Shown here piece after piece: positions 14,603-25,308 of a stretch of 31,625 nt of DNA; within the stretch, counting starts at the first letter, position 1; every line of letters starts with the position of its first letter. Source of the DNA: a virus; the IMG/VR virus record IMGVR_UViG_3300030943_000118. One strand, written 5' to 3'. A program made the position numbers and the translations under genes. Under the pieces are notes generated by a model. The model saw only the letters and a program-made list of their open reading frames with translations. It was not told the origin of the DNA and searched no databases.

Positions 14603-15763
14603 TCAGCCCTCCTTGATTTCTCGGTAGCTATATCCCATCTGGTTCAGCATCTCGATTAATGCTTCAATTCTTTCAACCGTGTCCGTGATTGCAATTCTGA
14701 TTGTGCCATTACCCGCCGGTGTTGCCCGTTCATTGACTTCCTCCGGTCCCGGTTCAAAGGCAGGAAAATCAAAATCGTCAGGTGAGAAGTCAGGCGTAGC
14801 AAAGTTATCAATCGGGGGTTCAGGCAGATACTTGAGGAAAGGAATAACGCGAGTAGGCACATCTTCAATGGTTCCGAATCCGACAATCTGCGCTTCCTGT
14901 ATTCCGCTTCTTGTTTCAACGTCTAAAACTTGCCCCGCAAAGTATTCAAATCCATCAGGGATAAGATAGGAATATTTCTGTCCGTCAAATCCTCCCTCAG
15001 GATGTCCGCTCTTGTAATTTACAAATGCTATTTTCTGTAGGGTCGATTCAGCAACGGATTTCGACTCAACCACGGGTTCCGGTATCACTTCGGGTACCGG
15101 CTTGTACACCTGCTTCTGCGCCTCGATCTGCGCTCTCTGCATCTCGATAGCCTTGTGCTTTGCCGCGACGCTTGTAATCGCCTGTGAGGCGTTCAGCGTG
15201 GGTATGTACTCAACAAGGATCTCTGCTTGATTTTCCTGCGTCTTGAACATTTCGAGTTCATCGGCGACCTTGTCGATAAATGCGGCACATTGTTTCTTGA
15301 GCGTCTCGACGTTCGCGGTTTTGGTTATATTCAGCCCGATACGCTCAAATGTTAAGAAGTCAATATTTGGGTAGTTCTCGAGAAAGCCGTCAAAGAATGC
15401 GCGGATGTCTGTCTCTTTGAATGCCTTGATTGCATCCTCGACCGTATCAATCTTTACCTTCAATTGACCGTCGGCATCATCATAAATGTCGGTTATGCAG
15501 GTCTTATAAACCTTGAGGAATTCCTCATATGCTGCCATGTACTTGTTTTTCAGTTCCATGCGCTGCGCTTCAAAGGCTTTCTTCTCGTTGTTGAGGTCGG
15601 CCCGTGCCGCCTTGACGATCTTGACCGTTTCATCGGTGCAGATCATTGACAGGTATTCGGCGACCTTTTTCTGGATCTCTGCCGATTTCGTTTTCAGGTG
15701 CTGCGTAATAATTGGAAGCTGTTCAAGCGTGATCAGTTCGTTAGATGTTTTTTTGGTTGCCAT
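14603..15763 (-). CDS. hypothetical protein (386 aa), recombinase-associated (possibly DUF1351-like)
   Basis: ATG 15763 with GGAGGGG 7 nt upstream; immediately upstream of ERF. Family guess is low confidence. Confidence 0.7.
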   Translation of the reverse strand: MATKKTSNELITLEQLPIITQHLKTKSAEIQKKVAEYLSMICTDETVKIVKAARADLNNEKKAFEAQRMELKNKYMAAYEEFLKVYKTCITDIYDDADGQLKVKIDTVEDAIKAFKETDIRAFFDGFLENYPNIDFLTFERIGLNITKTANVETLKKQCAAFIDKVADELEMFKTQENQAEILVEYIPTLNASQAITSVAAKHKAIEMQRAQIEAQKQVYKPVPEVIPEPVVESKSVAESTLQKIAFVNYKSGHPEGGFDGQKYSYLIPDGFEYFAGQVLDVETRSGIQEAQIVGFGTIEDVPTRVIPFLKYLPEPPIDNFATPDFSPDDFDFPAFEPGPEEVNERATPAGNGTIRIAITDTVERIEALIEMLNQMGYSYREIKEG

Positions 15764-15961
15764 TTAGTTCCCCTCCACTTTGAAATTATCGACGCAGTCA
15801 GCGCAGAACACGCAGCCGCATATCTCGTATCTGGTTTCACCCGTGATGTCTTCGCTGCACTCGTCACATATAATCTTCGGTTCTTCTTTGGGTTCCGGAG
15901 GATCAAGGTATTTATCCTCTGCCCTATCCAACGCGGCCTGTTGTGCGTAATCGTTGTACAT
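15764..15961 (-). CDS. small Cys-rich zinc-binding protein (65 aa)
   Basis: IICDECSEDITGETRYEICGCVFCADCVDNF; GAGGG RBS; directly downstream of the pentapeptide-repeat gene. Confidence 0.5.
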   Translation of the reverse strand: MYNDYAQQAALDRAEDKYLDPPEPKEEPKIICDECSEDITGETRYEICGCVFCADCVDNFKVEGN

Positions 15962-15976
15962 TTTGATTTCCCTCTA

Positions 15977-16741
15977 TTAGTTGTAGTTTTCTGCCTCTTT
16001 CCGTGTAATGAAAAAGTGAATCCCGGTAGAACATTCAATCCATCTATCCTCGTCGAAGTTATCAACACGGACGGTCTCGCCTTTGCGGTAAACAAAACTC
16101 TTGTCATATCCAGAAACCGCTTCATCCGCTCCGATTATTTCGAGCACTACGGCTTCTGAACATCTGCATTTTCGGGTAGTTGCAGAAGATCTCTTTCCGG
16201 TGACCAATAGCTTGACGATCACACCAGATTTTCGAGAATCGTTTCCGTCTCTGGCTGTTTTCCAAGCTATAAAATCGCCTTCTTCGGGGCAGGATAGAGC
16301 GAAAAACGCAGTTGTTTCGTTGTATTCTGCGCGGCTGAGGTCTGCGCTCCTGAGGTCTGCGCGGCTGAGGTTTGCGCGGCTGAGGTCTGCGCTCCTGAGG
16401 TCTGCGCGGCTGAGGTCTGCGCCACTGAGGTCTGCGCGGCTGAGGTCTGCGCTCCTGAGGTCTGCGCGGCTGAGGTTTGCGCGGCTGAGGTCTGCGCGGC
16501 TGAGGTCTGCGCCACTGAGGTTTGCGCGGCTGAGGTCTGCGCGGCTGAGGTCTGCGCTCCTGAGGTCTGCGCGGCTGAGGTCTGCGCTCCTGAGGTCTGC
16601 GCGGCTGAGGTCTGCGCTCCTGAGGTCTGCGAGGCTGAGGTCTGCGCCACTGAGGTTTGCGCGCCTACCGCCGCGATCGTATAGCCATTCTGTATGCAGT
16701 TTTAAAATCTCTTTTAGTTCGTCTGCTGTGTATGTTTTCAA
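15977..16741 (-). CDS. pentapeptide-repeat protein (about 24 A(D/N)LSx units) with an uncharacterised C-terminal domain of about 110 aa
   Basis: ANLSGADLSLADLRSADLSRADLRSADLSRADL... with strict 5-residue period; apparent TTG start with GGAGGG 7 nt upstream. Confidence 0.8.
   Translation of the reverse strand: MKTYTADELKEILKLHTEWLYDRGGRRANLSGADLSLADLRSADLSRADLRSADLSRADLRSADLSRADLSRANLSGADLSRADLSRANLSRADLRSADLSRADLSGADLSRADLRSADLSRANLSRADLRSADLSRAEYNETTAFFALSCPEEGDFIAWKTARDGNDSRKSGVIVKLLVTGKRSSATTRKCRCSEAVVLEIIGADEAVSGYDKSFVYRKGETVRVDNFDEDRWIECSTGIHFFITRKEAENYN
16322..16665. repeat. about 23 tandem near-identical 15-bp units (ctgaggtctgcgcgg and variants) encoding the pentapeptide repeats
   Basis: Seen directly in the sequence; the variants differ at one or two positions. 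Confidence 0.9.
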
Positions 16742-16803
16742 GGTGTTTCCCTCCGTGTTATAATTGTGGTGTCAGTAATTCCCTTTAGCCGTTTGAGTAG
16801 TAA

Positions 16804-17049
16804 TCAGACGGCTTTTTCTTTGGCCTCTTTGTTGGCTTTGAATGCCTCTCTGATTTCGTTTAAACGCGGCTGAAATCTGTTGATCGATGATTCGATGCGC
16901 CCGATGCGATAATCAAGATCGGGAAAACCGTGTTTAGTATTGTCATTTTTGAGATTGATCGTGCGCTGCTTCCCGTCATTCAAAAAAATTAAAGCTATGT
17001 CGAGATCAGCCATTTCGCTTGTCATTGCTAGTATTTCTTCTTCGCTCAT
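16804..17049 (-). CDS. hypothetical protein (81 aa)
   Basis: ATG 17049 with GGAAGGAGA RBS. Confidence 0.55.
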   Translation of the reverse strand: MSEEEILAMTSEMADLDIALIFLNDGKQRTINLKNDNTKHGFPDLDYRIGRIESSINRFQPRLNEIREAFKANKEAKEKAV

Positions 17050-17067
17050 TTGCTTGTCTCCTTCCTT

Positions 17068-17223
17068 TCAAAATCCGTGAAACATCGGGCTAAAGTCGTT
17101 CTCCGGCTTGATCGGGGTACTAATCGATGCGCTCCGGTTTGGTAAAACTTTCAGCCTGTTCTCATAGGCTTTATGGCGACGGTTTGTCAAAAGGATTGTG
17201 ATGATCTGACGGATGATACTCAT
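17068..17223 (-). CDS. hypothetical mini-protein (51 aa)
   Basis: ATG 17223 with AAAGGAGG 8 nt upstream; two further mini-ORFs (17230..17340, 17343..17483) sit upstream. Not in the ORF track. Confidence 0.3.
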   Translation of the reverse strand: MSIIRQIITILLTNRRHKAYENRLKVLPNRSASISTPIKPENDFSPMFHGF

Positions 17224-17484
17224 GTCTGATTACCTCCTTTTCCGTTGATAAAAGAACTTCCCGATATCGTCTGTCTTGATCCCCAGTGTGTCGGCAACCC
17301 CCAGAACAATTTCGAGTTCGAATAGACTTATCTGCTGCATCTCTACCCCTCCATTTCGAATAATGATATCTGCCTTGCTCCCTGCTCCTGATAGCAAATC
17401 TCCATGAGCCGCTTATGTCGCTCTGCCTCCGGCATACCGTCCTTATTTATCACCAGATCTATAAACTCAAAATCAATGTCCATT

Positions 17485-18375
17485 TCAAAACTCCATTTTT
17501 ACCTGTATAGGACGGTTTTCAATGGCTCTACAATTGGCAACAGCTTGTATGTAATAGCTTTCCTTTAGTTCAATTCCTATATGCCTGCGTCCCATTTCAA
17601 TGGCAACATATCCGGTTGATCCAATCCCATCAAATGGGTCTAAAACGATGTCATTTGGATTTGTCCAGAGCTCAATACCCCGGCGAATAACAGATAGTTG
17701 CAAAGGGCAGATATGTTTTTCGTCTTTATCTTCCCTTGCACAATCCTTTTGTAAGGTATCACCCTGCCTTATGTCCATCCAAACAGGTGATGCGTACTGC
17801 TGCCATTTGTCTACCGGGAAAGATTCGTTTGTATGTGTTGTTCTTTCGGGATTGTCACCCGGTTTTCTGAATGTTACCAAATAATCAGGCACGCCCTGTC
17901 TGCTCATGCAAGAGTCTTTTTTGATCTGTTTGTGTAATAGTCCCAGCGCCTTTGTTCTTTGCATGGCAACAACGGGATCTTTCCAAATAACAACCTCAGA
18001 GTGATAGATCATACCGGCCTGCTGCATCCCTCTAATAACATCGCCCCTAAGATCTCTCAGACCTATTACGCCGTCGCGTTCTTTCATCAAAGGCAGATTC
18101 ATGCAATGAACGGAAATCATTCTTCCGGGCATCATGACACGCACCCACTGACGAATCAGAAACTCGTAATGATCCCAAAATTCCGAATATGTGCGGCTGT
18201 TGCCTAAGTCTCGTTCACTGTTTGAATATGTATACAAAGATGCAAAAGGTATGGACGTAATTGAGTAGTGTATAGAGTTATCCGGGATCCCCTGCATGAC
18301 CTCACATGAATCCCCGTTATAAATTGCAAATTTATCTCCAATCTCTTGATTCATTACCTTTATGCTGCCAGCCAT
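17485..18375 (-). CDS. DNA methyltransferase (N6-adenine / N4-cytosine type, beta-class motif order), orphan
   Basis: N-terminal catalytic-type motif SIPF (variant of D/S-PP-Y/F) and C-terminal AdoMet motif LDPFDGIGSTG; no restriction endonuclease gene adjacent. Confidence 0.7.
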   Translation of the reverse strand: MAGSIKVMNQEIGDKFAIYNGDSCEVMQGIPDNSIHYSITSIPFASLYTYSNSERDLGNSRTYSEFWDHYEFLIRQWVRVMMPGRMISVHCMNLPLMKERDGVIGLRDLRGDVIRGMQQAGMIYHSEVVIWKDPVVAMQRTKALGLLHKQIKKDSCMSRQGVPDYLVTFRKPGDNPERTTHTNESFPVDKWQQYASPVWMDIRQGDTLQKDCAREDKDEKHICPLQLSVIRRGIELWTNPNDIVLDPFDGIGSTGYVAIEMGRRHIGIELKESYYIQAVANCRAIENRPIQVKMEF

Positions 18376-19739
18376 ATGGGTATCTCCATTTCTATCTGAG
18401 GGTTATACTCCTCTGTTTCTCGATATGTTTTTCTTACTTCCCTTTCGATGGACGCACGCGAGAATCCGGCCAATTTTTCAAACATCTCAATGGATTGCTG
18501 TTCTTTTCTTTTGATGTTTTCTCGAACGGCGCCCTCTGCTTCTGATGTGATGATGTAAACATTTACCGGCTGTATCTGTCCAAATCTCCAGCATCTGCGA
18601 ATGGCCTGATACATCATTTCGTAACTGTCAGAAAGTCCAACAAAAACCATGTTATTGCACTGCTGCCAGTTCATTCCAAATCCTGCTATCGATGGTTTAG
18701 AAATCATGATCCGAAACTTTTCTTCAGCAAATCCGATTAGACAATCCCTTTTATAGTCTCGATCATCGGATCCTTTTACTTCCGTTCCTCCTGACATTTT
18801 TGTCAGCATTTCGGATTCTGTGTTTAAGTCACACCACAATAACCACTGTCCCGGATCCTTTTTTATTAAGTCAACGGCCATCTGGCAACGGTCCTCTTTG
18901 CTGTCCCTGCGTGCGGTCCTGCGTTCTGTGAGTGTTGAAGCAATTGCCGGTACAAACATCAGCTGCCCGTCTATTTCTCCGTTTTCTGACTCGACTATGA
19001 TTTCTTCAATATTTAATGGAGGTAAATCGTATCCAATGTTTTCATAACCTAAATCAGAAGGTTTTCGAACGACAATAGCCCACTGGCTGATCCATTCCCA
19101 AAACTTATCCTCAGCATGTCCTTTTAAAATCCACTTTGCTGTTTCTCCTCCGTCATGATAGAAAAACGTTGAAAGCATCTCCGTTCTGGACATGACACCC
19201 ATGAATTCAGAATGATTCCCAAGCTCCACATAATCGTTTGGTGCCGGTGTAGCGGAACAAGCGAGCTTATAGGGAGTATCACGAAATGTTGTAATAATTA
19301 ACTCTCTGGTTTTCGAATTGAAATGCTTCAATATTCCTGATTCATCCAGAACTATTCCAGCAAATACAGCAGGATTAAAATGTTCTAACATATCATAGTT
19401 TGTAATGTTTATACCCTGGATAACATCTTCTTGTGTCCGACATACATTGACTTCATATCCAAACTTTATGCCCTCTTTTTTTGTCTGATTGGTTACGGCC
19501 AACGGTGCCAGTATTAATACTGGTTTTCCTGTATGGTTTACAACCTGTTGTGAAAATTCAAGCTGCATAGCGCTCTTTCCGGTTCCTGTGTCGGTAAACA
19601 GACAGTAACGCCCTTTTTTGACAGCCAATGTAACAACGTCTTTCTGCCAATTAAACAGATTGCTATTAATTTCAGTTGGTTCAAATCCACTTGGTGTGAT
19701 GGCAAATCTTTTTGATTCCAAAAATTCTTTATATTTCAC
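18360..19739 (-). CDS. SF2 helicase (SNF2/DEAD-like)
   Basis: Motif I DTGTGKS, motif II VLDESG, motif III SATPAPN, motif VI QAIRRCWRFGQ; GTG start with GGGAGG 7 nt upstream. Confidence 0.8.
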   Translation of the reverse strand: MKYKEFLESKRFAITPSGFEPTEINSNLFNWQKDVVTLAVKKGRYCLFTDTGTGKSAMQLEFSQQVVNHTGKPVLILAPLAVTNQTKKEGIKFGYEVNVCRTQEDVIQGINITNYDMLEHFNPAVFAGIVLDESGILKHFNSKTRELIITTFRDTPYKLACSATPAPNDYVELGNHSEFMGVMSRTEMLSTFFYHDGGETAKWILKGHAEDKFWEWISQWAIVVRKPSDLGYENIGYDLPPLNIEEIIVESENGEIDGQLMFVPAIASTLTERRTARRDSKEDRCQMAVDLIKKDPGQWLLWCDLNTESEMLTKMSGGTEVKGSDDRDYKRDCLIGFAEEKFRIMISKPSIAGFGMNWQQCNNMVFVGLSDSYEMMYQAIRRCWRFGQIQPVNVYIITSEAEGAVRENIKRKEQQSIEMFEKLAGFSRASIEREVRKTYRETEEYNPQIEMEIPIWLAA

Positions 19740-19923
19740 TGTCAGTCCTCCCTCTCGAAAAGCCCGAGTTTTCCGATGCGATCCTTGATCCAGTTTGAAT
19801 AATCTTTGCCAACTTCAAGAAATTCATGCAAATCACGGGTTTTACGGCATGTTCACCATTGTTCTCATAGACAGGAATGAGTTCATTGCTTATAATGTAC
19901 ATATTGATAATCTTTCTGGGCAT
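19729..19923 (-). CDS. hypothetical small protein (64 aa), uncertain
   Basis: ORF with a weak AAGGA RBS; its start region is complementary to the predicted antisense RNA. Confidence 0.25.
   Translation of the reverse strand: MPRKIINMYIISNELIPVYENNGEHAVKPVICMNFLKLAKIIQTGSRIASENSGFSRGRTDSEI
19868..19896 (+). promoter_or_regulatory. plus-strand sigma-A-like promoter TAGACA-N17-TATAAT
   Basis: -35 TAGACA at 19868..19873, 17-nt spacer, -10 TATAAT at 19891..19896. Confidence 0.4.
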
Positions 19924-19958
19924 TGCCCTAGCCGTCCTTGCCGGGCGGCTTTTTTATT
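19903..19958 (+). ncRNA. predicted short antisense RNA (about 55 nt) between the promoter and terminator
   Basis: Promoter and terminator are about 30 nt apart; no RBS-preceded ORF in between; antisense to the early transcript between the Cro-like and helicase genes. Confidence 0.3.
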
Positions 19959-19960
19959 TT
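19930..19960 (+). terminator. plus-strand intrinsic terminator
   Basis: AGCCGTCC-TTGCC-GGGCGGCT hairpin (8 bp, one G-U) followed by TTTTTTATTTT; on the minus strand it has a C-A mismatch and no U-tract. Confidence 0.5.
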
Positions 19961-19965
19961 GTCTG

Positions 19966-20205
19966 TTAAGCTGATTTGGAAAGTCTTTCAGGGGAAAATC
20001 CAAGAAGATAATCAACGGAGCACCCAAACGTATCTGCCATTTTTACAAGATATTCCGACGGACACCGCATATTGTCGGATTCCCACGAAGACAGTGTTTT
20101 CGATGAAATTCCGAGTTCTTTTGCTAGCGTTACCTGCGACTTTCTAAGCCGTACCCTCTCTGATCCAATTCTATTTTCGTTTGCTGAAAATGATGAAGCC
20201 ATTTG
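19966..20205 (-). CDS. XRE-family HTH regulator, Cro-like (first gene of the early operon)
   Basis: HTH LRKSQVTLAKELGISSKTLSSWE and C-terminal ADTFGCSVDYLLG; likely start MASSF at 20205 (AGGAGGGAGG upstream). Confidence 0.75.
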   Translation of the reverse strand, partial: QMASSFSANENRIGSERVRLRKSQVTLAKELGISSKTLSSWESDNMRCPSEYLVKMADTFGCSVDYLLGFSPERLSKSA

Positions 20206-20367
20206 CCTCCCTCCTTTCTCCAAGTCTTTCTTGTAGTCTTGGCATTAGCTTATAACTTAAAATTGTATGTGTCAACGGATTTTAGGAACAATTAAAAGAA
20301 TTATTTGTAGTTTTTATTGTTTTCTACAAATTCTTGTAGTACAATGCGAATACAAGGAGGTGATAGC
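20206..20367. promoter_or_regulatory. divergent switch region with promoters and operator-like repeats
   Basis: Minus-strand -35 TTGACA (20270..20275) with a TATAAG-like -10; plus-strand -10 TACAAT (20340..20345); inverted repeat ATTTGTAG-N13-CTACAAAT (20303..20331); 10-bp direct repeat TTCTTGTAGT at 20228 and 20331. Confidence 0.6.
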
Positions 20368-20721
20368 TTGGCTATACAAATGAGACTTAAGGAATTACGC
20401 AAAAAACGGGGATACACGCAAGTAAGCATGGCGGCCGCTTTGGGCGTAAATTACGGTTCATATCGAAATTGGGAACAGGGCGTAAATCAGCCCGACAATT
20501 ATGATATCGAGAAAATTATTGATCTTTTGAATACAACAGCGGACTACTTATATGGGAGAACAAATAATCCAGAAAGAAGTGTTTCTTATTCTGATCCAGA
20601 TAAGGCTTGGCTTATGGATAAAATAGAAAAATCAGGTAAGGTCGAGTTGTCGCAGATTAGAAGGGTTTGGGAGGCATTTTATGAAGAGCAGAAACGCCCA
20701 AATATCAACGTTTTCAGATAG
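20368..20721 (+). CDS. XRE-family HTH regulator, CI-like repressor candidate (no peptidase domain)
   Basis: HTH LRKKRGYTQVSMAAALGV...; TTG 20368 lies 7 nt after AGGAGG (alternative ATG 20380; ORF-track start 20317). Confidence 0.7.
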   Translation: MAIQMRLKELRKKRGYTQVSMAAALGVNYGSYRNWEQGVNQPDNYDIEKIIDLLNTTADYLYGRTNNPERSVSYSDPDKAWLMDKIEKSGKVELSQIRRVWEAFYEEQKRPNINVFR

Positions 20722-20820
20722 AAAAAGCATACAGAGATCAGATGAAAACAATACACTTGCAACAAAAAGTTACAACAGCCCAATAAGAAGCGCATAATGA
20801 GCGCTTAGAAAGAGGCGCAT

Positions 20821-21069
20821 ATGAAGCAGCTTCTAATTTTCGCAGCACTTATGATAATTGCCTTTTCTCCTGAGATATTACGATTCATCGGACGTCGCAT
20901 AGTCAACCGCTGGCTCAAGTCTGCAAAATCAATTCAGGATGATCCCCCCGATAATGATATGCACCTTGAGATTATGGTGCGAAACAAATATACTCACAAC
21001 TGGATCGTGGCATCGGCAGCAATGGTTCTGGCAAGACCAGGAGAGTATGATTTATGGATGCCTAAGTAG
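20821..21069 (+). CDS. small membrane protein (82 aa, N-terminal TM helix)
   Basis: MKQLLIFAALMIIAF... hydrophobic N-terminus; AAAGAGG RBS; co-oriented with the repressor-like gene. Confidence 0.55.
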   Translation: MKQLLIFAALMIIAFSPEILRFIGRRIVNRWLKSAKSIQDDPPDNDMHLEIMVRNKYTHNWIVASAAMVLARPGEYDLWMPK

Positions 21070-21094
21070 TCGCGCGTTACGATACAGATTAAAT

Positions 21095-21136
21095 AAAAAA
21101 AGCCGTCTACCCCCGAAAGGATAGACGGCTTTTATA
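21095..21136. terminator. bidirectional intrinsic terminator between convergent genes
   Basis: AAAAAAA-GCCGTCTA-cccccgaaagga-TAGACGGC-TTTTAT: perfect 8-bp stem with an A-tract on one side and a T-tract on the other. Confidence 0.7.
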
Positions 21137-21144
21137 GTTGAATG

Positions 21145-21798
21145 CTAAACCCTTACAACTCCCGGATAATCCGGATTGATGCTGATCCACAAATTCGGCT
21201 GATTCTGGATTCTGCCCCAGGTGCCCGATACTTCCGCAATGCCAAGAGTGAGCTTATCCTTAGCGAGAGCAATGTGGTCGCGTGACTCAATGCTTGCGTC
21301 CGGTGTCTTATGTATCCACGTGTCCGCTACTACCTTGATGGCGAATAGGCACGGATCGGCTTCGGGATAGCGCAGAACATAGATAAACGGACTATCGTAA
21401 TACGCCTGTTTGCGGATTTCCCGACCGTTTCCGTCGCCATAGCGACCGTCATAATCGGACTGTGCCTGTACGATCTGACCGTTGCCGATGAAAAACGCCG
21501 CATGTCCGCCCTTTGTTGCTGTTTTCGGACGCAGGAGAATGTCGCCTCTCTGCAAGCCCGCGCCGGTACGAAGATTGATGCGCGATGCAATGTTCTCAAA
21601 TCCTGCCGTAAGCAATGGAGCAAGCATATCGCCCGTATAGGAAGCACCGCCTGTGTTGAATCCTGCCGCTTTGAGTCCGTCAATGACAATCTTCGAGCAG
21701 TCGGTATCTCTGTCACCTCTGCGGGCCTGTGAGTACCCATGATAATTGTCTGACGCTATGCTTTCGGCATATTGTACGGCTTTTTCGATTTTGCTCAT
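21145..21798 (-). CDS. endolysin, NlpC/P60-like cysteine peptidase with a C-terminal binding-type domain
   Basis: Catalytic-type Cys in RDTDCSKIVIDG and His in GGHAAFFIGNG; ATGA overlap with the upstream holin gene. Confidence 0.7.
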   Translation of the reverse strand: MSKIEKAVQYAESIASDNYHGYSQARRGDRDTDCSKIVIDGLKAAGFNTGGASYTGDMLAPLLTAGFENIASRINLRTGAGLQRGDILLRPKTATKGGHAAFFIGNGQIVQAQSDYDGRYGDGNGREIRKQAYYDSPFIYVLRYPEADPCLFAIKVVADTWIHKTPDASIESRDHIALAKDKLTLGIAEVSGTWGRIQNQPNLWISINPDYPGVVRV

Positions 21799-22178
21799 AC
21801 CGCCTTACCTCGCAAGATGTACGCCTCAATCTGCGCTTTCAAATATGCCTGTATGTCAATATTGTGCTCTGATAAAAATGTAATTGTAGACTCTGATATT
21901 TGATTTTCCACAATAGCTCGAGCCTTATCGAGTGCCTGCAACTGTTCGTCCTTTGACCAGACCCCATCTTTGGTTGCGTCTTTGAGGTCAGTGACAAATG
22001 TCTGTGTGACCGCGTCGACGGCAGTCGCTACTGCTGATCCGATATCGGTCAGCATGTGCTCTAACTTTTCGTTGTCGGTCTTTGATGCCAGGTACTTCAC
22101 GCCAGCGTTAACCAGGATGATCATACAGGGCGCCAAAACCAGAGTGATTAATGAGATGATGATTTCTGTCCATTCCAT
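21795..22178 (-). CDS. putative holin
   Basis: 127 aa with an N-terminal TM helix (IIISLITLVLAPCMIILVNAGV) directly upstream of and coupled to the endolysin gene. Confidence 0.55.
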   Translation of the reverse strand: MEWTEIIISLITLVLAPCMIILVNAGVKYLASKTDNEKLEHMLTDIGSAVATAVDAVTQTFVTDLKDATKDGVWSKDEQLQALDKARAIVENQISESTITFLSEHNIDIQAYLKAQIEAYILRGKAV

Positions 22179-22193
22179 GATTCTTTCCTCCTT

Positions 22194-22706
22194 TTATCCT
22201 TTCATGTCTTCATGTTCTGCTGTTTCTTCGGGTGAGAAATGATTATTATCCCTAAACATCAGCGTGCCGTGCTCCACTCTTCTGTGTTCGTCGAGACGCT
22301 TGTGAGCTGACCGCGTGGACTGATCTATCAAATCCACCTTTCGGCATAGCGTCTCCTGCTCTTTTACAATTCCCGAAATCTGGTCCCCCACTCCCTTGCT
22401 CAGCTTATCGACGGTTGTGTTCATTTTTTCCACGGATGTAGTCAAATTGACAAAAGCAATCTCTGATTTTGTTTCTTTTGTTGCTTCCGCTACCGCCTTA
22501 TCCACTGCCGCCTGCGAGTCAATTTTGGCTTTTGATCGCAGGGTGTTTAGCTGGATTATGACGCCCAAAACAATGCCAATAATAACGATGACACCCAATA
22601 TTCCGGCAAATACAAATATGGTTGATTCTGGTATGGTTCCGTTACTCAAGGCTTCATCCTCTCTTTCAATTTTTTGTAATAAAAAAGCGCCTAAGCGCTG
22701 CATCAT
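22194..22706 (-). CDS. lysis-module membrane protein (170 aa, one TM helix)
   Basis: TM segment IFVFAGILGVIVIIGIVLGVII followed by a coiled-coil-like region; no SD before its ATG but a 9-codon uORF with AGGAGGT ends in TAATG at its start. Confidence 0.5.
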   Translation of the reverse strand: MMQRLGAFLLQKIEREDEALSNGTIPESTIFVFAGILGVIVIIGIVLGVIIQLNTLRSKAKIDSQAAVDKAVAEATKETKSEIAFVNLTTSVEKMNTTVDKLSKGVGDQISGIVKEQETLCRKVDLIDQSTRSAHKRLDEHRRVEHGTLMFRDNNHFSPEETAEHEDMKG

Positions 22707-22750
22707 TATTCGGGGCCGTCTCGGATCCTGATCATATGCGACCTCCTAAT

Positions 22751-24970
22751 TTACATTCTCTGGCCATGTATTGTTCTATAGCTAAAACTTTGATGTGAAC
22801 TTCCTTTTACATTTAGATTTGTACTAGACAACAATGAAAAATTTATTGTTTCACCCACCGAAGCATGTAAACAGAAAGGGATAGAATATACAAACCAACC
22901 ATTCGTATTTACACCAAACAAGGTTTGAAAATTACCCTCTGGTGCTTTTACTGATAAATAAACATCACCGTTTGCCGCCCCTGTAAGAATTGAAAATACT
23001 CCAGAAAAAACTCCAGTAAATGGGCAAACATAAGCAAACTCTGGAAATACCCATTCACTATTTGCCAATGATTGGTTCTCTGCAAACGCTGTAAAAACAG
23101 TCCTGACAAAGGCTTGTCTTGCTATGATTTCACCAGACGCAGCGCCAATAAATGTTGTAGGCATCCAAACTTTCAAGGGCACTGCATTACTTCCCACAGC
23201 CGCAGAACCTCCTGCAACATCCGCAGTGACACCGGTATTAGATAAATCAATGGATTTTAACTCTCTGTACTTTGGACCGCTCCCCTGAGACCATAAATAC
23301 GTAAATTGTAAGGCCAATTGTTTCAAGAAATTGACACCATTATCATTAGAATCTTCTCTCAAAAATGCAGTGCTTACTTTGCCGCCTCTTGTTGCTGCGG
23401 GATTAATAGAGGGCAAAGACGATCGCGCAAAAAAACCTCCCTGATACATTCGCGAAGCTATGGTTTCATAAACCGCAGATAGGTCCGTATTGCTTGTGTA
23501 CCATTGTGTTAACGATTGGGTCTTTATTTCTCCGGTACTTAGATTGAAAAATGACTTCCCGTCTGCGCTGCTAAGCGCGCCTGAAGCCACAATCCACTCT
23601 ACATTGATACCAATAGCAGTGAGTACCCTCGCAAGGATATTGCCTGTTGCATCATAACCAAGCCATGTAACGCCGCCATCTGCAGAATATGTAAAGGTTG
23701 TTGCTGTCTGCCGCCAAATGAAGATACTGTCCGCCCGCAAAGGGTGATCGTGTTGGTAGTAAATGACTGACCCGTCCGGAAGTGTTTCCGATGACGGGTA
23801 AAGCCCCGTTGACTGCGCGGAGAACTCATTAAGTTGAAGCATTGCCTGCTGGTACGTGGTCAGTTTCTGCACCGCGATTTGTTCTTGTTGCGCAATGGCA
23901 GAAAGTTGCTTTTCAGCCGCAGGTTTATACTTTGCTAAAGCTGTTGCCCTGCCAGCCGCCGATAAAACGGAATGACCGCGATATGAGTAATTATGTGTCA
24001 TGATTTTCGTAGTAATGGTTGACGCATCCGGGAGAACTATCGATATAGCATCGGTCGCCAAAAAAGACGGATCACCCTGCAAATCGCAGTCGAAAATATA
24101 GTAGCTTGATGCGCCGATGTCCACCCAAATTCCATTAAGGATCGCCTGAACATTCTGCCCCAACAAAAACGGATTCTCGGCAAGCGATAAACAATAGTTG
24201 TTTGTACCGGCCCTGTAGGTCGTCTGGACGTTGTTCGTGTCCATGGCGACATACTCAACACCGGTCAAACTGATCTGCACGGGATCGCATTTTAGAGAGT
24301 CTCGAAGCGCAGGCGTAATTGTCATAATTGGCGTTGTACCGTACCAAACGAACTCAAGCACGCCCGCCCGGGAGAACCGAGCGACCTTACCGCAGATCAT
24401 GGCCAGATATCCGATAGCATCACGGCAGGTCATTCTCGAGCTCTCGGGAATACCTTCCAAAGTGATTGCGCTGTTTGTTCCGGCTATACCGGTTGTCGTG
24501 ATCCCGCAAGCCAGACAGATTTTGTTAAGCGCCTCACTGATCGAGCACGGGAAAGTAATCCCTGCCAAATAGTAAGGACGCTCTGTCAGCACCATACGGT
24601 CATAGGCTTTTATCGGAATGGTTTTCATCCCGCGTAAGGCCTCGACAATAATAAAGTAGCCAAGGTTTACCCATTCGCGGGCAGCTCCTACCATTAACCC
24701 TACTTGACCAAGCAGTGCGCTATTTTGTAAAGACACATTGTTTAGTTCTCCGGAGAGATTCAATAAGGTCAAATCCAACTCAGACATGACTGTGGTCCCG
24801 ATGGATATCTCACTCCCGGAGGCTGTTGATTCTGTGTATTTCATGGATCCCGCGAGGATGTTTGCGTCCCCCAGTGTAGTATTCGGAGACCCATACACGG
24901 TGAGGGATGCGGCATAATCCCTCGCTATTGTCGGATTGGCCAGAATTGCCAGGTAATCATTTGATGGCAT
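22751..24970 (-). CDS. tail-associated protein (Tal-like; candidate tail endopeptidase / receptor-binding protein)
   Basis: 739-aa ORF after the tape measure and a small tail component; GAGGAG RBS; assignment by size and position. Confidence 0.65.
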   Translation of the reverse strand: MPSNDYLAILANPTIARDYAASLTVYGSPNTTLGDANILAGSMKYTESTASGSEISIGTTVMSELDLTLLNLSGELNNVSLQNSALLGQVGLMVGAAREWVNLGYFIIVEALRGMKTIPIKAYDRMVLTERPYYLAGITFPCSISEALNKICLACGITTTGIAGTNSAITLEGIPESSRMTCRDAIGYLAMICGKVARFSRAGVLEFVWYGTTPIMTITPALRDSLKCDPVQISLTGVEYVAMDTNNVQTTYRAGTNNYCLSLAENPFLLGQNVQAILNGIWVDIGASSYYIFDCDLQGDPSFLATDAISIVLPDASTITTKIMTHNYSYRGHSVLSAAGRATALAKYKPAAEKQLSAIAQQEQIAVQKLTTYQQAMLQLNEFSAQSTGLYPSSETLPDGSVIYYQHDHPLRADSIFIWRQTATTFTYSADGGVTWLGYDATGNILARVLTAIGINVEWIVASGALSSADGKSFFNLSTGEIKTQSLTQWYTSNTDLSAVYETIASRMYQGGFFARSSLPSINPAATRGGKVSTAFLREDSNDNGVNFLKQLALQFTYLWSQGSGPKYRELKSIDLSNTGVTADVAGGSAAVGSNAVPLKVWMPTTFIGAASGEIIARQAFVRTVFTAFAENQSLANSEWVFPEFAYVCPFTGVFSGVFSILTGAANGDVYLSVKAPEGNFQTLFGVNTNGWFVYSIPFCLHASVGETINFSLLSSTNLNVKGSSHQSFSYRTIHGQRM

Positions 24971-24972
24971 AA

Positions 24973-25308
24973 TTACAACTCCTCAAAAGCAATAGAGGAC
25001 TCCCACTGATCATCCATGATCATGTTTTCGTCGCTCGTCCGTACCTTGAAAGTACCCGTCAGCTGACTGCCCCTGCACAGATACGTCATTGTGAAATACG
25101 CACTAGCGATAAGAGCCGCAAAGGCAGTCAGTTCAGCATCGGTAAAAGTAAACTCAACCGAAATCGTCGCTTTCCCGGCTCTCACTCGCTGATCCCAGTC
25201 GATGCCGGTTTCAGAAGTTCCGGATTCGGCAACGACATCTTCTTTGTGCACAGAATATGTGTTAATCATGTTATCTAAATCCGTTGTTCCAATCGTTAAA
25301 ATTGACAT
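24973..25308 (-). CDS. tail component, possibly a short distal tail protein
   Basis: ORF 24973..25317; likely start ATG 25308 (AGGTGA 5 nt upstream) just after the tape measure stop. Confidence 0.5.
   Translation of the reverse strand: MSILTIGTTDLDNMINTYSVHKEDVVAESGTSETGIDWDQRVRAGKATISVEFTFTDAELTAFAALIASAYFTMTYLCRGSQLTGTFKVRTSDENMIMDDQWESSIAFEEL

Follow-up and report, generated by a model that had tools for sequence, protein, structure and literature searches.

In the IMG/VR virus record IMGVR_UViG_3300030943_000118 (31,625 nucleotides (nt); hereafter the window, i.e., the whole stretch of DNA that was analyzed), positions 19868–19960 probably constitute a sar-like cis-antisense RNA gene at the 5′ end of an AntA-type antirepressor gene (antA). 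The putative gene consists of a promoter and a terminator on the plus strand, located within a minus-strand operon between a Cro-like helix-turn-helix (HTH) gene (19966–20202, minus strand) and a helicase gene (18360–19739, minus strand). The original prediction for this interval had described such a promoter-terminator pair, placed it between these two genes, and likened the expected short antisense RNA to OOP of phage lambda. The pair and its location were found as described, and the nature of the target gene and the closest known system were revised.

Promoter-Terminator Pair

The antisense promoter (P_as) reads TAGACA-N17-TATAAT on the plus strand, which is an 11/12 match to the consensus promoter with a 17-nt spacer. 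The −35 hexamer TAGACA (19868–19873) lies opposite codons 10–12 (P-V-Y) of the antA remnant, and the −10 hexamer TATAAT (19891–19896) corresponds to its codons 3–4 (ATT ATA, Ile-Ile). In a promoter scan of both strands, P_as ranked best in the region 15000–25000 and was the sole site with a match of at least 11/12 in the whole window. The terminator stem-loop, AGCCGTCC-TTGCC-GGGCGGCT (19930–19950, plus strand), was found by both scan and fold. It has eight pairs (six of them G-C) and a 5-nt loop, begins 33 nt past the −10 hexamer, and is completed by the T run TTTTTATTTT (19951–19960), which is present on the plus strand only. This agrees with the original prediction of an 8-bp stem plus U-tract approximately 30 nt downstream of the promoter. 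The features that define a Rho-independent terminator, i.e., a G+C-rich stem-loop followed by a U run on the transcribed strand, are thus both found on the plus strand. On the minus-strand side, the hairpin is followed by AGGGCAATG and lacks a T run, such that it is expected to terminate transcription in the plus direction only.

The co-occurrence of these two elements exceeds chance significantly. Because the window contains only about four strong terminators, a chance promoter located 20–100 nt upstream of one of them on the same strand is expected approximately 0.002 times by our own arithmetic. The distribution of exact TATAAT hexamers gives a similar picture. Four are found on the plus strand and none on the minus strand of the window. 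Two of these four are located 22–33 nt upstream of the only two strong plus-strand terminators (approximately 0.004 each by chance), and no terminator follows either of the other two.

The second of these pairs (16735–16820) is inside the same minus-strand operon and consists of a promoter, TTTTCA-18-(TGT)TATAAT (16735–16764, plus strand), and a terminator with a 10-pair hairpin followed by TTTTTCTTT (16787–16813, plus strand), 22 nt past the −10 hexamer. The hairpin has a folding energy of −16.2 kcal/mol on the plus-strand RNA and −10.8 kcal/mol on the minus-strand RNA. The −35 hexamer overlaps the TTG start (16741) of a pentapeptide-repeat gene, and the gene at 16804–17049 has its stop codon in overlap with the hairpin. 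This arrangement predicts another antisense RNA of approximately 50 nt. Since it repeats the combination of TATAAT and terminator with the same strand asymmetry as seen at the first pair (see below), it was counted as support for an antisense RNA at the latter.

Conservation of the Unit Among Relatives

Three lineages were available for comparison, namely the window phage, contig L050, and the L055 group (L055, L056, L057, and L078 to L080); the latter two were the only other lineages with a homologous 5′ region. The unit compared comprises the antisense −35 and −10 hexamers, the A at the predicted transcription start, a 5′ tail complementary to the Shine-Dalgarno (SD) sequence, a small hairpin with a GGGC/GCCC stem, and the terminator. 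Contig L050 (1.8 kb) contains a CI-like gene, an unrelated Cro-like HTH gene (68 aa), and a 46-aa in-frame AntA stump. Members of the L055 group encode an 83-aa AntA protein and have a divergent zinc-ribbon gene upstream. Independent scans of these relatives recovered a promoter-terminator pair antisense to the AntA gene in both, which is TAGACA-17-TATAAT with TG and an 8-pair terminator followed by TTTTTATTGT in L050, and TATACA-17-TATAAT with TG and a 9-pair terminator followed by TTTTATTTGT in L055.

All components of the unit are recognizable in the three lineages. The −10 hexamer is invariant; the −35 hexamer is identical in L050 and differs in L055 by a synonymous GTC to GTA substitution. 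Both L050 and L055 have a TGn extended −10, and L055 has the weaker −35 (4/6). An A is found 7 nt past the −10 hexamer in all three lineages, and the T run in the antisense orientation is kept in L050 and L055. The tail of L055 includes CCTCTCC opposite a GGAGAGG SD sequence. The stem of the small hairpin is invariant, and its loop varies in length and sequence (ATT in the window, TCCAC in L050, and TTCT in L055). Within the promoter spacer, a palindrome with perfect arms, AATGA-GT-TCATT (19876–19887, plus strand; unique in the window), is near-invariant across the three lineages, synonymous sites included. This palindrome may be a protein-binding site or merely reflect the N-E-L-I codons. It was not retained as a regulator site, as it has no second copy and bears no resemblance to the TTGTAG repeats that form candidate operators in the cI/cro intergenic region.

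Sequence similarity starts just outside the T run and fades past the −35 hexamer, and the flanking genes differ in all three lineages. The position, spacing, and orientation of the pair are nevertheless kept. A relative of the Cro-like gene (L077; 73% identical) lacks the unit, which indicates that the unit is associated with the 5′ end of antA rather than with cro. Streptococcus phage TP-J34 has the same gene order (cI-like gene, divergent promoters, cro-like gene, and antirepressor gene), but its cro/ant junction lacks an antisense promoter-terminator unit, and the unit is therefore not general to the cro-ant layout of temperate phages of Gram-positive bacteria. Taken together, the absence of the unit from L077 and TP-J34 and the differences in flanking genes indicate a mosaic module that is tied to the antA 5′ end. 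In addition, the point of antA truncation differs between the window and L050, suggesting that the gene bodies were lost independently while the 5′ end was retained.

A blastn search of the region returned only short matches within antirepressor coding sequences from GenBank phages and none from plasmids. Helicase relatives were found at 37 loci in IMG/VR, and the one closest to the window (L001; 87% amino acid identity) has different upstream genes and lacks the unit; for the Cro-like and CI-like proteins, the IMG/VR relatives found were all distant. The exact terminator pattern had no match in IMG/VR. Alignment searches with the AntA N-terminus yielded no match among genome contigs and, in IMG/VR, only full-length ant genes of low-GC phages without the unit. 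A degenerate DNA pattern that required neither promoter nor terminator had 15 matches in genome contigs and IMG/VR combined, all attributable to chance.

Predicted RNA and Strand-Specific Structure

From the promoter and terminator, we infer a transcript of approximately 55 nt (19903–19957, plus strand), which would start at A19903, 7 nt past the −10 hexamer, and end within the T run; the possible length is about 53–56 nt. Such an RNA would complement the early mRNA perfectly, from 1 nt upstream of the ATG at 19902 to just short of the Cro-like stop codon. This codon is at 19966–19968, beyond the end of the T run at 19960, and the predicted RNA overlaps no upstream coding sequence. The 5′ tail is predicted to be unpaired and includes an anti-SD sequence, TCTTTCT (19911–19917, plus strand), which complements the AGAAAGA upstream of the ATG at 19902. 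It is followed in the predicted fold by the small hairpin GGGC-ATT-GCCC (19918–19928, plus strand) and the terminator hairpin, and the folding energy of this two-hairpin structure is −20 kcal/mol (z = −2.9). The predicted RNAs of the three lineages share this fold, including the unpaired 5′ tail, the GGGC-loop-GCCC hairpin, and the terminator hairpin, with energies of −20, −19.8, and −23 kcal/mol (z = −2.9 to −4.0).

The original prediction had suggested that covariation in related phages be examined. An automated covariation table (MAFFT/RNAalifold) was unusable because the loops of these short RNAs were misaligned, and the stem pairs were therefore counted after the structures had been aligned by hand. 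When the window is compared with L050, pairs 3 (C-G/A-U), 5 (G-C/C-G), and 6 (U-G/G-C) of the terminator stem have changed on both sides with pairing kept. Moreover, the hairpin is 1.1–5.5 kcal/mol more stable in the antisense orientation than in the sense orientation in all four variants examined, namely the window (−13.7 vs. −10.1 kcal/mol), L050 (−12.0 vs. −10.9 kcal/mol), L055 (−14.6 vs. −9.1 kcal/mol), and L057 (−14.6 vs. −11.5 kcal/mol). In every variant, the weaker structure on the sense strand results from G-U pairs of the antisense RNA that become C-A mismatches. This strand asymmetry and the presence of the T run on one side only indicate that the structure functions on the antisense strand. 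With respect to the short antisense RNA of the original prediction, the conservation of the pair as a unit and the strand-specific G-U pairs strengthen the claim, and the RNA itself is predicted from sequence.

The Predicted Target Is a Decayed antA Gene

The gene opposite the predicted RNA is an AntA-type antirepressor remnant (19742–19902, minus strand) that starts at the ATG at 19902 and is both frameshifted and truncated. Its first 21 codons are in frame to 19840, where a 1-nt deletion occurs, and the ancestral frame then resumes to a TGA at 19744–19742. Accordingly, three-frame translation gives MYIISNELIPVYENNGEHAVK in one frame and TRDLHEFLEVGKDYSNWIKDRIGKLGLFERED followed by a stop codon in another. 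The joined 53 amino acids match the Pfam AntA domain (PF08346; E = 1.3e-9; 38.9 bits with a cutoff of 27) at profile positions 1–34 of 68, i.e., the first half of the domain alone is present, and they also match PHROG anti-repressor families. At the deletion site, the window reads GTAAA-ACC where its relatives have GTAAATACC, and one T was therefore lost in the window. Programmed −1 frameshifting at GUA-AAA-C was considered and rejected, since a stretch of only four A is insufficient and comparison with the relatives shows a plain T deletion.

Gene finders and the original prediction had called a different open reading frame (ORF) here, which encodes 64 aa (19729–19923, minus strand) and uses an upstream ATG. 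In this frame, no Pfam or PHROG family was matched, and the tail is out of frame relative to antA and overlaps the helicase start. The conserved start is the ATG at 19902; the ATG at 19923 is specific to the window phage and lies within the loop of the small hairpin. The start codon and the gene identity given in the original prediction for the ORF opposite the RNA therefore need correction. At least 24 metagenome contigs, which come from several JGI, ENA, and Logan assemblies, share the 64-aa ORF with 100% identity, and the 1-nt deletion is therefore not a sequencing error. As a lesson for annotation, this 64-aa "hypothetical protein" found in at least 24 contigs appears to be a pseudogene remnant that lies over an unannotated RNA gene.

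Alternative Explanations

Several observations weigh against a sar-like antisense RNA gene. The target gene is defective in the window phage (1-nt deletion and truncation), and the sar-like job of keeping Ant off may therefore be obsolete. The helicase gene downstream has a strong ribosome-binding site (RBS) of its own, which makes an effect of the RNA on helicase expression uncertain. The use of the TTGACA/TATAAT consensus was inferred only from the GGAGG RBSs and a TTGACA-17-TAGAAT early promoter in L050. No Rfam family reached the gathering score in the window, and a search for sar in 19800–20050 gave no match even at E ≤ 10, only noise. The 11/12 promoter match is not significant when taken singly, as dinucleotide shuffles have a mean of 0.42 sites with at least 11/12 matches per window and 36% of the shuffles have one or more. 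Furthermore, the promoter hexamers overlap conserved codons (Ile-Ile and Pro-Val-Tyr), and the conservation of the promoter could therefore be a by-product of coding. Among the codons with the same amino acid in all three lineages, 6/10 are identical within the promoter footprint and 4/13 are identical further downstream, which leans toward promoter constraint but is not significant (Fisher p = 0.16). Finally, every further copy of the window phage has the same sequence (100% identity), and only the three lineages are informative; the contigs with the exact 64-aa ORF are identical across 19700–20400 and hence offer no variation to analyze.

One alternative is that the hairpin is only an element of the early mRNA on the minus strand, such as a processing site or a 5′ stabilizer after cleavage at the A-rich tract, with the promoter being a codon by-product and no antisense RNA being made. 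The promoter is indeed wholly within coding sequence, with a conservation not significantly above that of neighboring codons and a match score that recurs in more than a third of the shuffles, and on the sense strand the hairpin still folds (−9 to −11.5 kcal/mol) and the succession of A-rich tract and hairpin is likewise conserved. However, the peptide IPVYE is also encoded by distant ant genes in which no promoter results, which indicates that the peptide does not force one. The sense hairpin is also the weaker form in 4/4 variants owing to C-A in place of G-U, the conserved T run follows the hairpin in the antisense orientation only, and the pairing of TATAAT and terminator is found twice in a window with only four TATAAT hexamers on the plus strand. 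Considering these observations, a purely sense-strand role appears unlikely. The terminator could instead be an insulator that shields the cro/cI switch from longer plus-strand transcription, with the nearby promoter being incidental. It would fit such a role that no further plus-strand terminator is found between 19950 and the cI-like gene, and that the second plus-strand terminator in the same operon (16787–16813) is unidirectional as well. Yet this operon has no plus-strand gene or other strong plus-strand promoter upstream from which such transcription could come. In L055, the terminator is in the intergenic region between divergent genes and can be reached only by a transcript that starts inside antA. 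The conserved block also stops just past the −35 hexamer, and insulation is considered improbable.

Two other possibilities extend transcription beyond the terminator. P_as might be an establishment promoter similar to P_RE of lambda. Its read-through transcript would cross cro in the antisense direction and enter the cI-like gene as sense RNA, and the terminator would act as an attenuator that sets the amount of repressor mRNA. The topology in the window and L050 is suitable, since the promoter is downstream of cro and directed toward cI with no further plus-strand terminator before cI. Nonetheless, the terminator is strong (8 pairs, 6 G-C, and six T) and has no evident antiterminator fold, the promoter is near-consensus rather than activator-dependent, and L055 has no cro/cI pair beyond its terminator, such that we regard this explanation as very improbable. 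A related scenario, to be rated only slightly above it and quite improbable as well, is that one promoter has two jobs, with most transcripts stopping as a sar/OOP-like antisense RNA and a regulated fraction reading through cro into the cI-like gene. If true, such a dual-job unit would unite the roles of lambda P_RE and OOP in compact form and set repressor establishment, and it would explain why a promoter-bearing 5′ stump of antA was kept in two independent truncated lineages despite decay of the protein. It is also conceivable that the plus strand does not specify a non-coding RNA but encodes a small hydrophobic peptide, such as a type I toxin. The relevant ORF (19877–19969, 30 aa) is open in all three lineages, and its product in the window, MSSLLIMYILIIFLGIALAVLAGRLFYFVC, is strongly hydrophobic. 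This candidate was rejected as scarcely credible, because its ATG is located between the −35 and −10 hexamers, upstream of the predicted transcription start, and is abutted by AGGA without spacing. Moreover, the peptide is not conserved (L050 contains HRSFWAPRPRPLAGG within the corresponding sequence) and has no Pfam match, and its hydrophobic, Phe-rich composition is that expected from translation of a GC stem and a T run. As this is the sole plus-strand ORF here, the statement in the original prediction that no RBS-preceded ORF lies between promoter and terminator holds.

Comparison With Known Antisense RNAs

Antisense RNAs that restrain antirepressors or early genes are textbook examples in a few enterobacterial phages (sar, OOP, and c4), and the length of sar is 68–69 nt. 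The geometry of P22 sar fits the unit in the window better than that of lambda OOP. In both sar and the predicted RNA, a small cis-antisense RNA with two predicted hairpins has its promoter inside the first antirepressor codons, runs back over the SD region of this antirepressor gene, and is ended by an intrinsic terminator located where the upstream regulator gene has its 3′ end. In a P22-like record, sar extends from the 5′ end of ant across the intergenic region to the 3′ end of arc, and a TATACT hexamer is located immediately upstream of its own 5′ end. Sar represses Ant synthesis by pairing with the ant mRNA (PMC13397905; PMC2629481). The differences are also apparent. The predicted RNA has no sequence or covariance-model similarity to sar and is shorter (approximately 55 nt). 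Its target is an AntA-family gene that has undergone truncation and a frameshift and is thus not an intact functional antirepressor gene. The upstream regulator is an HTH Cro-like protein, whereas that of P22 is the ribbon-helix-helix protein Arc. The unit in the window is in the main early operon between cro and the replication genes, whereas sar is in the separate late-region immI "ant moron." Finally, the window phage is an uncultivated one from peat metagenomes, and its RBSs look Firmicute-like.

OOP overlaps the 3′ end of the cII coding region and acts via RNase III cleavage. It shares with the predicted RNA a short antisense transcript, a constitutive-looking promoter, an intrinsic terminator, and a location between the switch and the replication genes, opposing the early transcript. 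The positional part of the resemblance noted in the original prediction is therefore upheld, but the predicted RNA does not overlap the 3′ end of the upstream gene. It ends at least 6 nt before the Cro-like stop codon and covers an RBS instead, and there is no cII-like gene. OOP is reported to counteract cII expression (PMC5869508).

Small RNAs that silence antirepressor genes of temperate phages also include the c4 RNAs of P1/P7 and the CA RNA of N15. These are processed from the sense transcript or act within it, through a translation block or premature termination, and are not convergent cis-antisense RNAs.

Proposed Mechanism and Significance

Under the proposed sar-like antisense RNA, a near-consensus promoter of the sigma-A/sigma-70 type within the first 12 antirepressor codons would fire against the early operon, with transcription starting approximately 1 nt upstream of the antirepressor start codon. 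The product would carry an unpaired anti-SD 5′ tail and a small hairpin and would end at a strong intrinsic terminator just short of the Cro-like stop codon. This RNA of approximately 55 nt would pair with the early mRNA at the cro/antA junction and block ribosome loading on the antA frame, and the RNA-mRNA duplex would probably form a double-strand cleavage site. Convergent firing could also cause interference with the early promoter. The net effect would be to dampen leaky expression from the antirepressor gene and from the replication genes downstream of it (helicase).

With antA broken in the window, the likeliest current role would be to keep leaky expression of the early (replication) genes downstream low, but the unit may also be an intact relic. 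The unit remains intact although antA has been truncated in two lineages, each at a different point, and one of them also has a frameshift, suggesting that the RNA may have a value of its own, such as gating the replication genes. If correct, the sar-like reading would imply an independent and sequence-unrelated reinvention of the sar layout in an uncultivated Firmicute-like phage, adjoining a cI/cro switch. A promoter in the first ant codons combined with a back-to-back terminator would then represent a recurrent design.

Gene Neighborhood

The window represents a circularly permuted phage genome with scaffold, minor capsid, terminase, SSB, DnaB-like, ERF, lysis, and tail genes, and its RBSs look Firmicute-like. 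The first gene of the early operon encodes the Cro-like HTH regulator (78 aa; 19966–20202, minus strand; HTH_3, E = 2.5e-9; Phage_CI_repr, 7e-6). Next downstream of the antA remnant is the superfamily-2 DNA helicase gene (18360–19739, minus strand; phrog_62, E = 7e-55), which has a GTG start and a GGAGG RBS, and the operon also includes a DNA methylase gene (17485–18375, minus strand). Divergent from the Cro-like gene, a CI-like HTH repressor of 117 aa is encoded at 20368–20721 (plus strand), with a TTG start after AGGAGG. This protein has an HTH only and no peptidase or autocleavage domain, and induction would therefore be expected to depend on an antirepressor, yet no Ant-like gene other than the broken one was seen. 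No integrase gene was found among the ORFs scanned, and the region between the lysis genes and the repressor gene has just an 82-aa ORF without an assigned family (20821–21069, plus strand).

Several minor features were also observed. In the cI/cro intergenic region (20228–20340), TTCTTGTAGT occurs at 20228 and 20331 and a related TTTGTAG at approximately 20304, all of which are candidate operator half-sites. No repeats of the TTCTTGTAGT type are found near the antisense promoter. Between the convergent lysin gene (minus strand) and the 82-aa ORF, a 16-pair hairpin at 21098–21133 is flanked by an A run and a T run and looks like a bidirectional terminator. In L078, an element with the L055-type module, a ribosomal protein S21 homolog is found at 1763–1963 beside a DnaB-like/AAA_25 gene. 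The pentapeptide-repeat gene of the window (15977–16741, minus strand), which also has DUF5758, contains many tandem repeats in a 15-nt register (approximately 16326–16666). Several assemblies break at these repeats, and their copy number varies among otherwise identical contigs, with a product of 254 aa in L041 and 219 aa in L042.

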